A DNA stretch of 56,545 nt from a virus (taxonomy: Duplodnaviria > Caudoviricetes). The position numbers and the translations under genes were made by a program. Of this stretch, positions 7,775 through 43,571 are shown one piece after another. Location of the stretch: positions 1-56,545 of the IMG/VR virus record IMGVR_UViG_3300042543_000175. One strand, 5' to 3'. Position 1 is the first letter of the stretch. Each line of letters opens with the position of its first letter. The notes under the pieces are model-generated. The model searched no databases, had not been told where the DNA came from, and saw only the letters and a list, made by a program, of their open reading frames with translations.

Positions 7775-8390
7775 TCGCTTGAGGATTTTTCAAGGATTCG
7801 GCCTTGCTTGCCCCGAAGCCAAGTTGTTCGGGCGTGTATGCCGTGATGGGCATTGCTGAAATATGGCCTTGGCGATCTGCCTGAATGAAGAGGGTGGTTG
7901 CAATTCCCTGACGATGCTGCTCTGGAAGGTTGAGTTCCACCGCAATGTCGTTGGCCTTCTTGACGCATAGACGCATCAGATTTGCCGCCTGACAGAGGAA
8001 TTGCTTGGCGTCCTTATCTGGATGGGCTGGGGCCGTAATGACCTTTTCTGCGGGCTTCTGAGCTTGTTGCGGGGCGCTCTGGGCTGCGGGCAGGCTGGAA
8101 GCGGGAACCCCAGCAGGCTGAATCTCCATGGAATCGGTCTTCTGCTTAGAGTTGCCAGAAGCAATAAGTACCACAGACTTGCCGACATATTGCTGGAATT
8201 TCGATGCAATGTCCTTGTTCTCAGTAAAATACACATGAGCTACGCCGTCAACGATCAATTCGATAACGCACAGGCTGTTTGACTTCACCCATTTAGGGGG
8301 CGATTTAACTGATACGAGCTTCGGCCCATTTTTGGCCAAAGTAAAATGTGAGAGGATTGGTGCTTTAGGTTGGTTGGATTGATATGCCAT
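7767..8390 (-). CDS. Hypothetical protein, possibly ssDNA-binding/recombination
   Basis: 207 aa; beta-rich N-terminus, A/P/Q linker, helical C-terminus; next to the exonuclease. Confidence 0.45.
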   Translation of the reverse strand: MAYQSNQPKAPILSHFTLAKNGPKLVSVKSPPKWVKSNSLCVIELIVDGVAHVYFTENKDIASKFQQYVGKSVVLIASGNSKQKTDSMEIQPAGVPASSLPAAQSAPQQAQKPAEKVITAPAHPDKDAKQFLCQAANLMRLCVKKANDIAVELNLPEQHRQGIATTLFIQADRQGHISAMPITAYTPEQLGFGASKAESLKNPQAND

Positions 8391-8437
8391 ATAGGTAGAT
8401 GTTCGTTATATCCGACAACCCAACTTGTCAAGCGTTC

Positions 8438-8474
8438 AAAAAAAGCGGGGCCGAGTTTTTAGCCCGACCCCGCT
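8438..8474 (-). terminator. Intrinsic terminator (minus strand)
   Basis: AGCGGGG...CCCCGCT stem followed by a U-tract on the minus strand. Confidence 0.7.
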
Positions 8475-8519
8475 CCACACACACATTGAAAACAGGAAGA
8501 CGAATGCCCTCCAATCTGC

Positions 8520-8589
8520 AATCTAGCAAAGACACGGAATCATGCAAGCGGAAAATCATCTTGCCGCCACCTTCTTTTTAGAGTAGATT
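8520..8589. promoter_or_regulatory. Back-to-back sigma70-type promoters
   Basis: Plus: TTGCCG(8561)-17-TAGATT(8584); minus: TTGCAT(8547)-16-TAGATT(8525). Confidence 0.5.
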
Positions 8590-37132: not shown

Positions 37133-37724
37133 TCCGAGGTTTTGTTATTCCCGCAAAAGCGATGTTCCGCCACAAGGCTGGTGGGTAAAATGCCCCGTTC
37201 TTGATGAGCCAGTTCGCGGAGGCGATTGGAATGACATGGTCAATAACTGCGAGAAGCTTCTAATCTCAAGGGGTATTACGCCGCCAATAGATTTTGTGTC
37301 ACAAATAGAACATAATCTTTGTGACCGCATGGCTGGTCATGTGCATTGCATTCCATGCACACAAGAGAAACAAACATTAGGATTTGCACAGATTGTTCGA
37401 TGGGTTAAGGCCATGTATCAATTTGCCATCAATGGAAAGTTTGAGCTTGTCTCTCAAGAAGAAGCAGAACGGCGGGCTAAGATTTGCGCGGCCTGTCCAC
37501 ACCAAATTGCAACCTCTGGATGCTGGGGATGTAAGGGCATTGCTGGGATGCTTCCGCATATTGCTGGAGCCAGAAAAACCTCTTACGATCCACAACTAAA
37601 AGCTTGCGGAATCTGCGGTTGCTATTCCGCAATCGCTGTCCATCTTCCATTAAATGTTCAAGGCGGAGAAGGATTGAACTTCCCAGACTTCTGCTGGAAG
37701 TCTAAGCAGGCTCAAAGCGAGTAA
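37125..37724 (+). CDS. Cys-rich hypothetical protein
   Basis: RRAKICAACP...CWGC...CGICGC...CWK. Confidence 0.6.
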   Translation: MSSPRFCYSRKSDVPPQGWWVKCPVLDEPVRGGDWNDMVNNCEKLLISRGITPPIDFVSQIEHNLCDRMAGHVHCIPCTQEKQTLGFAQIVRWVKAMYQFAINGKFELVSQEEAERRAKICAACPHQIATSGCWGCKGIAGMLPHIAGARKTSYDPQLKACGICGCYSAIAVHLPLNVQGGEGLNFPDFCWKSKQAQSE

Positions 37725-39006
37725 TCGCCTTGTTGAAATACATATTGGCTACACCAGTAGGGCCGTCACGATGCTTTCCGACGATAAATTCCATAGTTGG
37801 CATTTGTCCGTGATCTTGTGATTCTTCGCTATGAAGCATGATGACAATATCAGAGTCTTGCTCAATAGCTCCAGAACCCTTTAGGTCTGAAAGGCTTGGG
37901 CGTCCTCCGCGCTTGTCTGGATCGCGATTAAGTTGAGCCAGTACCAAAACTGGTACTTTGAGAGTCTTGGCAAGGTCTTTGATTCCTCCGCTAATCTCCT
38001 CAACTTCGCACACGCGATTGTCCTTACCACGCTTGCTATCACCCTTCACTAACTGTAGGTAGTCAATGATAATGAGATCTAATGGAGTGCGTTGATGTGC
38101 GCGTCGAGCAACGGCCTTGAGATAACCGATAGATTTAGCAGAGCTATCGTCGCAGATAATTTCAGAGCCTTGGATCTCTTGAACGGCCCGTCCTAGAGAT
38201 TGTTTTTGATGCGGGGTTACGCGACCAGAAAGAATATCAGCCGCACCCACACGCGCCCGCGAGCGTATCATGCGCTCCATCAAAGCAACGCTTGTCATTT
38301 CCAATGAGAAGATAAGAACACGCTTCTTCTGATTCAATGCCACGTTCTCCGCAATCTGAAGGGCGCTTGCCGTCTTGCCGACTGCTGGCCTTGCGGCCAA
38401 GACAACCATGTCTCCTCCGCGCAATCCAAACATCAAAAGATCGTCCAATGGTGTGATTCCAGTGCGAATACCAATACATGGTTTTCCAGCAATCGTAGAT
38501 TCGATGTTCTGGGCAGCGCGGTCTAATGCATTGACGATAGAAAGCTTGTTGCCGTCATCAATTTCGTAGTCAGCCCTCATCACTGTGGTTTCCGACCAGT
38601 TCTTGAGTTCTTCGATCTTTAGCTCGCGGTCTCTGGCCTTGTGAACCATATCGTTGGCCAAGTATTCTAACGACCTTCTGTATCGGGCTTCCTCCAGCTT
38701 TGGGTAGTAGCGTTTCCAGTTATTATGGGCCACACACGAAGTTGCAACTTCTGCAATTTTTTGTTCACCGCCAATGATGTCGTATTCATTGGCGGCTTCG
38801 ATCTCCCCCTTGACATTGATAATATCGGCCTGCATCCCCTTGGCGATACAACGCATGATCGCCCGAAAGATGATCTTGTTCTCCTGTAGATAGAAATGAT
38901 CCTCCTTGATTGATAGAAGAATCTCGCGTTGATCCTCTGTCGGCGCATGACAGAGGCAGGAAAGGATTGCGGTTTCAGCCGATGGTTCGTGAATGACTTC
39001 GTGCAT
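37702..39006 (-). CDS. dnaB: Replicative DNA helicase
   Basis: AARPAVGKT, FSLEM, IIDYLQL, LAQLNR, LSDLKGSGAIEQDSD, KHRDGPTG. Confidence 0.97.
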   Translation of the reverse strand: MHEVIHEPSAETAILSCLCHAPTEDQREILLSIKEDHFYLQENKIIFRAIMRCIAKGMQADIINVKGEIEAANEYDIIGGEQKIAEVATSCVAHNNWKRYYPKLEEARYRRSLEYLANDMVHKARDRELKIEELKNWSETTVMRADYEIDDGNKLSIVNALDRAAQNIESTIAGKPCIGIRTGITPLDDLLMFGLRGGDMVVLAARPAVGKTASALQIAENVALNQKKRVLIFSLEMTSVALMERMIRSRARVGAADILSGRVTPHQKQSLGRAVQEIQGSEIICDDSSAKSIGYLKAVARRAHQRTPLDLIIIDYLQLVKGDSKRGKDNRVCEVEEISGGIKDLAKTLKVPVLVLAQLNRDPDKRGGRPSLSDLKGSGAIEQDSDIVIMLHSEESQDHGQMPTMEFIVGKHRDGPTGVANMYFNKAITRFEPA

Positions 39007-41745: not shown

Positions 41746-42023
41746 TTGTCGGCAATCTGTTGAAGGAGTCGCGTCTGACGGCGGAGTTCTTCAAGCTGAT
41801 GGCTTGCCGCAATCTCCGCGCTTAAACGGTCGTTTGATTCTTTTAACTCTGCATTGATCCGCCTCATGGTCTGAAGAAGGGTATCCTTTGGTTGTGGGGA
41901 ATCAACAGATCCGTTGATAACTTGAATACGGCCCGAATCCAAATCAAAGACTGTACCCGAAAAGCTACCGTCTTGTGCCTGAATATTTGTAGCTAGTGTT
42001 AATAACAGTAGTAGTTTTTTCAT
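41742..42023 (-). CDS. Putative secreted protein
   Basis: MKKLLLLLTLA..AQ signal peptide. Confidence 0.6.
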   Translation of the reverse strand: MKKLLLLLTLATNIQAQDGSFSGTVFDLDSGRIQVINGSVDSPQPKDTLLQTMRRINAELKESNDRLSAEIAASHQLEELRRQTRLLQQIADK

Positions 42024-42032
42024 AAAAGAGAT

Positions 42033-42112
42033 TGGAGGCAGGGTGGCGCGGACTTCATTGGCCCCCCGACCTTTGAAGCTTTCGCATTTTCATGCTGGGT
42101 CTCCCCACCTCC
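42033..42112 (-). ncRNA. Candidate 80-nt structured RNA
   Basis: 10-bp closing stem GGAGGUGGGG/CCCUGCCUCC plus A, internal GACC/GGUC stem and GCAU-GAAA-AUGC hairpin. Confidence 0.5.
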
Positions 42113-42117
42113 AAAAG

Positions 42118-42183
42118 TGGTGGAGGAGTCGGCATTGCAGCCGAGTCCGCGCATTAAATGGCGCGTCGAACCTATTCTCCCCC
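42118..42183 (-). ncRNA. Minimal tmRNA-like RNA (tRNA-like domain only, 66 nt)
   Basis: GGGGGAG-AAUAGGUUCGAC-GCGC(CAUUUAAU)GCGC-GGAC-UCGGC(UGCAAU)GCCGA-CUCCUCC-ACCA; G3.U70 wobble, encoded CCA. Confidence 0.75.
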
Positions 42184-42254
42184 TTAAAGTTGTCATGGAG
42201 TAATAGACCACAGCCGCTTCGCGGCGTTCAATATTTTTTCTTTTTTTTCTTTGG

Positions 42255-42752
42255 GGGTATTCGGCGGGCTAAAGCCGTGCGCCCGCCTATATAGCGGCTC
42301 TCTTTCGCTTGAACCCCGAACGCCGCCGTCATTGGATTAATAATTCCTTGAGCTAGATCCGACCGATTGACTACACCTCGCCCCCGCAGGGGCAAAGGCA
42401 TAGTCAAAATTGGATTCTCATTCCTATGAGTGAGTCCTCCGCTTTATTCCACAGATTGCGATCTAGGCTCCGAAGCCGCTAGTAGACCTTCAAACAACCG
42501 CAATCGACCTCCGAGGGTATTATCCCTCGCGCTTACTCTGTTGGCTGACACAATTTTTGTATATTTTATGTGTCAGGCTTGAAAGAAATACTTATATCTT
42601 TTTCTTTCAAAAACCAGAGATTCCCACGCCGCAATGTGTTCAGGCTATGGGACGGATGGCTGATCCGTAAGTGCGGCGGTTTTATCCTTGCATACCTCGT
42701 TACGGGGTTTAGTGGCGTATGTCGCGCCCACTTTGCGCTTGTCCTTCCAGAC
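42255..42752 (-). ncRNA. Candidate ~500-nt highly structured RNA
   Basis: At least 8 inverted repeats in an ORF-poor region downstream of a consensus-like promoter. Confidence 0.5.
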
Positions 42753-42758
42753 ATGCGG

Positions 42759-42787
42759 AGGCTACGACACGTTCAAAATTAAGTCAA
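42759..42787 (-). promoter_or_regulatory. sigma70-type promoter
   Basis: TTGACT-17-TAGCCT. Confidence 0.6.
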
Positions 42788-42789
42788 GA

Positions 42790-42868
42790 AAAGAAAAAGG
42801 GTGCGGCTCCGAAGCGAGGTCTGGAAGACAAGCGCAACATTTTTGGAACCGCACCCAGATGCAAGGAT
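42790..42868 (-). ncRNA. Candidate antisense sRNA with built-in terminator
   Basis: 12-bp stem GGGUGCGGUUCC/GGAGCCGCACCC followed by UUUUUCUUUU; loop complementary to 42733-42752 transcript. Confidence 0.6.
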
Positions 42869-42874
42869 CGACGC

Positions 42875-42903
42875 AGAGTAACGCCAGTGTTGTAGAGTGT
42901 CAA
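42875..42903 (-). promoter_or_regulatory. sigma70-type promoter
   Basis: TTGACA-17-TACTCT. Confidence 0.65.
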
Positions 42904-42923
42904 CAAGAGAGTAATATGTTTCT

Positions 42924-43214
42924 ATGGATAAAGAATCCTATAGATCCTACTTGAGAACGCCTTATTGGAAGGAAGTGAGCCGTCTTGTGAAAAAACGTTT
43001 TGGCTGGAGATGTGGGGTTTGCAACAGTCCCCTAGAACTCCAAGCCCACCACCGCACCTACGAACACCGAGGGGACGAACTCAACCATCTGGATGATCTG
43101 ATCTGCCTCTGCAAGCTCTGCCACAAATTGTTCCATAAAGAACAGAGGAAAGCCCGTAAACCACAGAGGGCGCAGAAACGAAAGTCTCCACGCCCCCGAA
43201 ATATTAATATTTGA
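42924..43214 (+). CDS. HNH endonuclease
   Basis: YLRTPYW...CGVC..LQAHHRTY...DLICLCKLCH. Confidence 0.85.
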   Translation: MDKESYRSYLRTPYWKEVSRLVKKRFGWRCGVCNSPLELQAHHRTYEHRGDELNHLDDLICLCKLCHKLFHKEQRKARKPQRAQKRKSPRPRNINI

Positions 43215-43241: not shown

Positions 43242-43571
43242 ATGTCAATACATAATTATATGATCAACACATCTACTCTACCTACTGAAATTCAGGAAAA
43301 CCCCGAAATCACCATTGGCGAACTGGCCGTAAAACACGGATCAAGCTACCATGCTATGGCTTCGGCGTTGAAGCGGACTGGTATTCGGGCCAAGCGCAAG
43401 AAGACTACCAAGAGGCGAATGTCCAATGGGGGGCGGGCTTTCAAAATCCTTGGCTATCTCATGGCCAACCCTGAAATGAACTTCACTGCTGTTGCCGAAC
43501 AATTCAATTGTACCCGCGAGTATGTGAGCCAGATTGAGGCCATTGCCCGTGAGGAGGGGATCATTAAATGA
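43242..43571 (+). CDS. Tandem HTH DNA-binding protein
   Basis: ITIGELAVKHG and NFTAVAEQFNCTREYVSQI. Confidence 0.65.
   Translation: MSIHNYMINTSTLPTEIQENPEITIGELAVKHGSSYHAMASALKRTGIRAKRKKTTKRRMSNGGRAFKILGYLMANPEMNFTAVAEQFNCTREYVSQIEAIAREEGIIK

Follow-up and report, generated by a model that had tools for sequence, protein, structure and literature searches.

A candidate small RNA whose hypervariable loop is matched to a same-strand target in uncultivated freshwater phages

To our knowledge, same-strand antisense control has been described for a few enterobacterial elements (P1/P7, P4 and Gifsy-1), with one or two specificities each; c4 of phage P1, CI of phage P4 and IsrK make up the C4 antisense RNA family of Rfam. 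The arrangement in ColE1 (RNA I/RNA II) and R1 (CopA/CopT) is a different one: target and antisense RNA are transcribed from opposite strands, complementarity is automatic, and loop variation defines incompatibility groups. Here we analyse a control region of a phage (Caudoviricetes) that occurs in lake-water metagenomes, represented by IMG/VR record IMGVR_UViG_3300042543_000175; the whole 56,545-nucleotide (nt) stretch, hereafter the window, is estimated to be 78% complete. Its minus strand carries, in a 900-nt stretch without conserved open reading frames (ORFs) at 42024-42923, a promoter-like motif (promoter P1), a hairpin with a large loop, a U-rich tract, a second promoter-like motif (promoter P2) and a target complementary to the loop at the predicted 5ˊ end of a long RNA (Table 1). 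Loop and target change together among relatives, and the best overall explanation, which we hold with moderate confidence, is a same-strand RNA-RNA recognition pair controlling the long RNA.

In the immI operon of phages P1 and P7, as outlined in the available accounts, c4 is a small RNA encoded on the same strand as its target and upstream of it, with loops complementary to that target, and the heteroimmunity of the two phages rests on differences in the c4-target complementary sequences (PMC12197685, PMC8198154). The lake-phage RNA likewise lies on the same strand as its target and upstream of it, within one control region, and matched changes in RNA and target set close relatives apart in their specificity. 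It differs from c4 in several respects: it pairs by one long loop over 19-25 base pairs (bp), whereas c4 uses two short loops; it would target a structured, non-coding RNA at the 5ˊ end, whereas c4 targets a ribosome-binding site; it has its own putative promoter and a terminator-like end, whereas c4 is processed by RNase P; and it occurs in about 15 versions (counted by eye) against two in P1/P7. The CI RNA of phage P4, whose seqB is complementary to seqA and seqC, is summarised as a same-strand leader antisense RNA that controls the expression of replication genes (PMC4825925). It resembles the lake-phage RNA in adjoining its complementary sequences on the same strand. CI, however, is excised from the primary transcript and acts through premature termination at an upstream and a downstream site, whereas the lake phage has one variable and one conserved site, both downstream, and no terminator past the target. 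For IsrK of Gifsy-1, the same source outlines a short form that ends at its own terminator and a read-through fraction that constitutes a long RNA, on which the short form acts in trans (PMC4825925). Lake-phage RNA-library contigs that bridge the terminator fit such a read-through picture, with carry-over of DNA being possible; unlike the lake-phage RNA, IsrK activates translation of a downstream ORF, whereas the lake-phage target starts no conserved ORF and a separate promoter appears to lie between small RNA and target. As in ColE1 and R1, the lake-phage target sits at the 5ˊ end of a long structured RNA, and a kissing contact followed by pairing from the free end is plausible; in contrast to those systems, both partners are on the minus strand, so that each change needs a compensating change.

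The first-pass annotation of this DNA had offered ColE1 RNA I/RNA II, c4 and CI as analogues. ColE1 proves a poor structural match, since its antisense RNA comes from the opposite strand, while c4 and CI fit better, as does IsrK. The antisense RNA is on the same strand as its target and upstream of it, as in the c4/CI type; the target covers no ribosome-binding site or start, and no terminator-like hairpin with a U-tract was seen past it that would stop transcription before the replication genes. With the C4 covariance model of Rfam, neither 41900-43000 (E <= 10) nor any of 12 related loci gave a match. More generally, no Rfam family reaches its gathering score in the window or in those 12 loci, and the five matches at E <= 10 in 41900-43000 are at chance level, none of them on the small RNA or its target. 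By analogy, we read the RNA as belonging functionally with the c4/CI/IsrK kind, as a new variant without an Rfam model match. A literature search, mostly of abstracts, returned no description of this RNA or of a same-strand antisense pair with many specificities.

All motifs named in the first-pass annotation were found where it had placed them, except that the second -35 hexamer lies one base off, at 42787-42782. Folding of the 96 nt with the hairpin gives -34.2 kcal/mol (z = -4.4), a value matched by none of 200 shuffles. Within the loop, 42837-42819 pairs with the target at 42752-42733, the two lying 66 nt apart on the minus strand with the loop upstream, and reading and duplex energies both bear out the earlier claim of a loop antisense to the stretch after the second promoter over 19 bp with one bulge, here a bulged G. 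Against 7,534 segments of 50 nt from both strands, the target is the best non-self partner of the loop (-34.0; mean -14.6, standard deviation (sd) 4.7), and the runner-up reaches -32.2. Judged from this one genome alone, the pairing is only suggestive; it is the comparison with relatives that lifts it above chance.

Related loci were gathered via two flanking proteins (127 viral-contig loci, consisting of the best 80 of 211 relatives from 214 candidate stretches plus 47 further loci), by a scan for the exact stem arms (28 viral contigs) and by a scan for a motif of the downstream RNA (44 viral contigs). The same motif retrieved 66 metagenome stretches, of which 36 were dropped for lacking the upstream TTTGAAC, as chance matches or cut contigs; metagenome stretches with <250 nt of upstream sequence were dropped too. 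All data pooled comprise 51 distinct upstream control regions from viral and metagenome contigs. A viral-contig set of 35 distinct P2 versions, 28 of them hairpin-bearing, was obtained with a filter that had no T-tract requirement, and the later hairpin finder, used for the pooled 51 regions, required a T-rich tract. The first alignment (the window and 23 distinct homologues) shows conservation of the stem arms, of the region of the U-tract, of both promoter motifs and of the downstream RNA, in contrast to the loop and the sequence that follows the second -10, both of which are scrambled in matched fashion. MAFFT misaligned the hypervariable loop between sequence types and column-wise pair counting across types failed; column counts were therefore restricted to group 1 (10 sequences including the window), and alignment-free duplex energies were used for the other types.

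Complementarity is not generally lost in homologues, the outcome that the first-pass annotation had named beforehand as counting against it. The hairpin module is present in 43 of the 51 distinct control regions, and in 42 of these 43 loop and target are complementary, with cognate duplexes of -28.8 to -39.9 kcal/mol, each at least 3 sd below the mean for its own shuffled targets (means -12 to -21, sd about 3); the first 21 distinct loop/target combinations had spanned -28.9 to -37.8 kcal/mol. This pairing persists in the most variable part of the locus: identity is 0.55 over 42850-42831 in the loop and 0.70 in the target, compared with 0.83-0.93 in the conserved flanks, and the region outside loop and target is 85-100% conserved. 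Loops in relatives are 29-38 nt long and pair over 19-25 bp, and by eye we count about 15 sequence versions of the loop-target pair.

Compensatory changes, which the first-pass annotation had suggested looking for, are present in group 1, where three loop-target pairs have changed on both sides, in 9 cells. All 310 stem and loop-target cells of this group are paired, the loop-target cells alone contributing 190 of 190, and sliding the partner columns by 1-3 positions leaves only 40-46% paired. The covariation score of 0.113 was reached by none of 500 shuffles; the count of three two-sided pairs is less striking, as 54 of 500 shuffles reached it. A second line of evidence comes from classing the modules of 26 distinct full-length versions. 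Tail and loop occur in 13 combinations (5 x 8 classes), and target and next hairpin also in 13 (9 x 6 classes) though these two modules touch, whereas loop and target occur in only 10 (8 x 9 classes). Neighbouring modules are thus reshuffled by recombination, and loop and target remain matched. Selection on RNA-RNA pairing is well supported by these comparisons, and we regard it as highly probable.

An inverted repeat kept alike without any function, by templated quasi-palindrome repair or by inheritance as a linked block, is in our estimation the least probable reading of these data. The copies are only 66-85 nt apart and hence tightly linked, and template switching can homogenise quasi-palindromes; but the two places of pairing are identical in all of the versions, about 15 by eye, and one invariant G always marks the end of the duplex; neighbouring modules that lie about as close together or closer undergo free recombination, and a wobble bias points to RNA. 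That bias is visible in several comparisons. In 18 of 21 cases, the minus-sense RNA version of the cognate duplex has a higher stability than that of the other strand. In the outer stem, 119 of 120 cells from 10 distinct versions are standard pairs, with 21 G.U and 1 C.A, and stem positions 4, 6 and 8 show two-sided changes. An A/G difference in the 3ˊ arm gives U-A in 11 and U.G in 12 sequences, a wobble that exists solely in the minus-sense RNA. A tally of transition mismatches was not decisive, with 20 wobble-compatible cases vs 11 incompatible ones, the latter mostly at one internal-loop site. Compensatory changes and G.U wobbles together point to a minus-strand RNA as the form in which the hairpin would act.

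The same evidence bears on a role at the DNA level, in which loop and target would be inverted binding sites of a phage protein such as the HTH or HNH-like product, their variability reflecting immunity specificity or escape from a homing endonuclease. The setting would suit it, as the HNH-like and HTH genes adjoin this divergent control region, one repeat copy overlaps the predicted P2 start and some targets are partly palindromic (group 2 loops against the reverse complement of their targets give -21 to -26 kcal/mol). However, the strand preference of the mismatches speaks for RNA, the direct-repeat reading in group 1 (-13 to -20 kcal/mol) is no better than shuffles, the small bulges and indels between the copies are tolerable in a duplex but would not be in a protein site, and the loop of a conserved, covarying RNA hairpin encloses one copy. 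We therefore think a DNA-level role quite improbable.

The elements on either side of the loop carry signatures of a separate transcript. A G+C-rich stem of 12 bp, nine of them G-C pairs, directly precedes the U-tract, and all 28 hairpin-bearing viral-contig versions have, past the stem, a T-rich tract whose sequence differs. Both promoter-like motifs have sigma-70-type hexamers at 16-18 nt that are kept in relatives. The hexamers of P1 are retained around a 16-17-nt spacer in at least three unrelated sequences; P2 keeps TTG at -35 and a fixed spacing, its -10 takes the TAnnnT forms TAGCCT, TAGGGT, TAGGTT, TAGCTT and TATCCT among the 35 viral-contig versions (exceptions GAGTTT and CGCGAT), and metagenome contigs add TAGGCT and TACCCT. 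In the window, TTGAC-N18-TAnnnT has five matches against 1.5 expected, two of them being P1 and P2, and 1 of 100 shuffles gave five. A consensus promoter scan listed neither, because each -10 matches the consensus at only 3 of 6 positions. In every type, an invariant G exactly 7 nt past the P2 -10 is the first base complementary to the loop; this is where a sigma-70 promoter is expected to start, and the next transcript would then have the target at its 5ˊ end. The tandem switch of promoter, small RNA and promoter proposed in the first-pass annotation thus stands in part: the pairing is maintained and the hairpin, U-tract and both promoter-like motifs are conserved, while the spacers and tracts themselves vary.

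The P2 spacer is constrained rather than free to vary, because it contains the invariant TTTGAAC. A Bacteroidota-type -7 box (TAnnTTTG) over this spacer is doubtful, with 46 matches in the window where 36 are expected and a TA that homologues do not keep; TTTGAAC as an operator repeated genome-wide was discarded, its 18 occurrences in the window against 12.7 expected being no enrichment. In some relatives, the upstream promoter has the reverse complement of TTTGAAC (CGTTCAAA or CGTTCAAT) as its -10 region, and a TTTGAAC inverted repeat spans the control region in seven of them (L159, L164, L172, L167, L161, L158 and L044). The two copies are possibly operator half-sites for the divergently encoded HTH protein.

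The hairpin module is missing from eight distinct relatives, in which the downstream RNA with its 5ˊ hairpin and P2 (degenerate in two) are retained; in most of them a second promoter-like motif stands in tandem in place of the hairpin. One of the eight, L167, has a window-like target, and no other sequence complementary to that target was found on its 7.5-kb contig. Sense-strand hairpins in the collected loci all precede P2 where the contig extends far enough, and stand-alone copies are absent. P2 is thus independent of the hairpin, and by this comparison the small RNA is a separate add-on module inserted between two promoters. In two relatives a tRNA-Met gene lies near the control region (L170, 3756-3830; L161, 5091-5165), that of L170 being on the strand of the hairpin module and immediately upstream of it, at the usual place of P1.

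The small RNA may touch its target transcript at a second place. Positions 42868-42859 of its predicted 5ˊ tail form a perfect inverted repeat (10 of 10) with 42693-42684, and the corresponding duplex has -12.9 to -18.8 kcal/mol in 23 of 26 distinct homologues, is weak in two and absent in one; in the L012 type it is absent by eye. Three unrelated tail classes reach the same invariant site in different registers. This site belongs to an invariant stretch within the loop of a helix that is itself supported by two-sided changes, and since the site never varies, covariation cannot probe the contact. We consider a second contact likely.

Several observations weigh against a same-strand recognition pair that controls the long RNA, some of them concerning specificity and others the existence of a separate small RNA. 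The sole mismatched module, in L192, reaches only -19.2 vs a shuffled mean of -21.8; the loop of this metagenome contig carries a different, G+C-rich inner hairpin, and the module has possibly been retargeted or has decayed. Only 19 of 26 loops prefer their own target class, non-cognate pairs with another loop class having a mean of -18.9 (sd 4.9) and a best value of -35.3, and predicted specificity is accordingly unclean. A division into orthogonal classes by duplex energy was given up, single linkage merging 32 of 36 combinations at a margin of 6 kcal/mol. The loop, 34 nt here and 29-38 nt in relatives, exceeds the 3-8 nt of a textbook terminator and is shortened only in part by the inner hairpin; a consensus terminator scan called none here, because it permits loops of 3-8 nt only. 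The expression data are assembled RNA-library contigs, which cannot show starts or ends; the four RNA runs contained only 5-7% of the sampled words, and uncovered parts and differences in depth between contigs were excluded as evidence. Contigs from two studies (X20 record 2, 42873-42670; X23 record 11, 42813-42674) bridge hairpin, U-tract and P2, which suggests read-through or carried-over DNA. The beginning of X20 record 2 at 42873 was not taken to mark initiation of transcription, since this is also where an adjoining contig, from another strain type, ends. Finally, the target together with 42757-42753 can form a hairpin of its own, and in 25 of 36 distinct targets this hairpin starts 1-2 nt past the -10, upstream of the predicted P2 start, so that at least some RNAs with this arm must begin further upstream; in the clade with the other stem version it mostly starts at positions 3-7. 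The 5ˊ arm of the target hairpin (42753-42757, with 42735-42743, minus strand) is unlike the small-RNA loop, yet pairs with the same 3ˊ arm, so that two separate sequences track one partner via different wobble choices (e.g. L144).

The bridging contigs, the early arm of the target hairpin and the oversized loop would also be expected if a single structured RNA of ~900 nt ran from P1, without a discrete small RNA, the pairings being long-range intramolecular contacts and P2 being weak or otherwise used. The whole 861 nt folds with z = -6.3 (20 shuffles); its minimum-free-energy fold pairs the 5ˊ tail with 42693-42684, and its centroid fold pairs loop with target. We rate this possibility as unlikely, though deserving of serious attention. 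A structural linker would need no U-rich tract, yet one is kept in 28 of 28 versions despite sequence drift; the TTGAC-N17-TAnnnT pattern of P2 is maintained, hairpin-less relatives included; the complementarity starts exactly at the predicted P2 start; and 19-25 bp far exceed a tertiary kissing contact and would melt the 12-bp stem or the target hairpin. A hypervariable internal contact is also hard to explain in an RNA that is otherwise 85-100% conserved, and the module is missing from eight relatives that have the long RNA. A discrete small RNA acting in trans appears likely, though well short of certain, in view of the terminator signature, the independent P2, the pairing from the predicted +1, the add-on nature of the module and its hypervariability.

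The presumed target transcript is conserved and structured over much of its length. In its 5ˊ domain (42752-42619), one helix has two pairs at which RNAalifold detects changes on both sides, each in 7 of 23 sequences. A stretch of variable hairpins (42618-42537) separates this domain from a non-coding block at 42536-42186, which is 72-94% identical per 20-nt bin and about 85% overall among 25 homologues; 42530-42331 is about 90% identical, and the block is more conserved than the neighbouring ORFs. A freshwater RNA-library contig (X23 record 10, 679 nt, depth 68.6) covers this block and the 5ˊ domain, with 13 other letters in place of the variable hairpins at 42537-42618. A 62-aa ORF from the ATG of the target was rejected, as its frame is open for 2-62 aa in 49 homologous segments and the conserved motif occurs in all three frames; the 5ˊ domain and target are on this ground not coding. 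ARAGORN found no tRNA or transfer-messenger RNA (tmRNA) in the window. No terminator-like hairpin with a U-tract was seen past the target or before the first ORF at 42023, and the long RNA is therefore probably also the leader of the operon that ends in dnaB. At 42118-42183 on the minus strand, a tmRNA-like domain that resembles tRNA represents one of several alternative small cassettes: at the same spot relatives (L131, L138, L142, L146, L013, L085 and L106) have other ~60-nt units with acceptor-like closing stems, or structured insertions of ~400 nt, and an inserted ORF in L013 reads like an HNH/AP2-type homing endonuclease. Rfam tmRNA matches at this spot are at chance level only (13.6 and 9.1 bits).

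We propose that P1, a strong sigma-70-like promoter, would direct the synthesis of an RNA of ~80 nt consisting of a single-stranded 5ˊ tail, a 12-bp G+C-rich stem with a loop of 29-38 nt and a U-tract at which part or all of the transcripts would end. The loop would be antisense to the first ~20 nt of the RNA that P2 initiates directly past the U-tract, and in most relatives the 5ˊ tail would be antisense also to an invariant loop ~60 nt further into that RNA, which itself would form a conserved, structured, non-coding leader of ~730 nt into the leftward operon. Pairing could begin as a loop-loop kiss and spread from the free 5ˊ end of the P2 transcript, opening its 5ˊ hairpin and covering the invariant loop, and would thereby make the long RNA, and what lies downstream, less active or less stable; we infer the transcript ends, the action in trans, the negative sign of this effect and an immunity-like role. 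A mixed picture may also hold, in which partial termination yields the short RNA and read-through together with P2 yields the long RNA, similar to IsrK.

Because loop and target are hypervariable and change together in surroundings that are conserved and freely recombined, we read the pair as a specificity determinant against cross-talk between related co-infecting phages, comparable to heteroimmunity or plasmid incompatibility. By analogy with the known systems, a role in immunity or incompatibility is plausible, if still tentative. A more specific version, an RNA-only lock of superinfection or incompatibility under diversifying selection, is a somewhat more doubtful proposition: where an incoming phage has the same lock, its long RNA would be silenced by the small RNA of the resident phage, escape would require matched double changes and so produce a natural library of about 15 RNA lock-and-key pairs, the silenced RNA would be the one that carries the tRNA-like or tmRNA-like cassettes and leads into the replication operon, and the conserved second contact would be the effector step that masks an invariant functional loop. 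Against a role in lysogenic immunity, no integrase or repressor was recognised among ~40 proteins scanned with PHROGs and Pfam, so that gene content lends such a role no support.

A similar device to that of the enterobacterial elements thus appears in uncultivated freshwater phages via an unrelated RNA without an Rfam match. Comparative data alone reveal repeated matched changes of key and lock, and natural variation serves here as checkable evidence for RNA-RNA pairing. For a discrete RNA acting in trans, the hypervariability would be understandable where related phages share a host cell; if the immunity-like reading is true, RNA-based heteroimmunity would extend to environmental phages. The natural small RNA-target pairs form a set suited to testing orthogonality, and the small RNA offers a handle on the highly conserved long phage RNA that it appears to control.

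Table 1. Positions in the window of the small-RNA module, its target transcript and neighbouring genes.
Feature	Position	Strand or direction	Remarks
P1 -35, TTGACA	42898-42903	minus	TTGAC invariant in 23 aligned homologues; TTGAC[A/C] in distant relatives
P1 -10, TACTCT	42875-42880	minus	17-nt spacer from -35; TACTCT/TATTCT/TATTTT in homologues; TTCAAT/TTCAAA in distant relatives
Predicted single-stranded 5ˊ tail of small RNA	42857-42868	minus	42868-42859 complementary to 42693-42684; RNA start inferred
Outer stem, 5ˊ arm (12 bp)	42845-42856	minus	12/12 pairs with 42810-42799, one G.U
Loop (34 nt)	42811-42844	minus	Recognition sequence 42837-42819; inner 4-bp hairpin 42829-42819 with apical U-C-C
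Outer stem, 3ˊ arm	42799-42810	minus	Pairs with 42856-42845
U-rich tract directly 3ˊ of stem	42788-42798	minus	Intrinsic-terminator signature; 9 T within 11 nt
P2 -35, TTGACT	42782-42787	minus	TTGAC[T/C], TTGCAC, TTGCAT, TTGAAT in homologues; retained in most hairpin-less relatives
TTTGAAC within P2 spacer	42771-42777	minus	Invariant in 23/23 aligned homologues; also in hairpin-less relatives
P2 -10, TAGCCT	42759-42764	minus	17-nt spacer from -35; TAnnnT in 33/35 viral-contig versions
Target, 20 nt complementary to loop	42733-42752	minus	Begins at invariant G 7 nt past P2 -10
Conserved structured 5ˊ domain of downstream RNA	42619-42732	minus	Includes invariant site 42693-42684
HNH-like protein gene	42924-43214	plus	First of the rightward genes, right of the control region
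HTH protein gene	43242-43571	plus	Rightward, after the HNH-like gene
DnaB-like helicase gene	37702-39006	leftward	End of leftward operon; identified from translation

The control region is divergent, with the HNH-like and HTH genes rightward and the operon ending in dnaB leftward. A possible promoter of the HNH-like gene lies at 42880-42926 on the plus strand (TTGTAG, 16 nt, TAATAT, 8 nt to the ATG at 42924); it overlaps P1 back to back, and competition between the two may occur. A blastn search in distant mode gave no match among GenBank phage records. A scan of prokaryote genomes with a 19-base motif of the long RNA gave a sole match, in a metagenome-assembled genome labelled Dysgonomonas, which was taken as chance since it lies in a coding-looking stretch without the surrounding architecture. 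A second divergent control region of the same layout is present at 8390-8560 on the minus strand of the window, with TTGCAT-16-TAGATT, ~75 nt, a G+C-rich hairpin followed by 8 T, TTGACA and a gene start at 8390.

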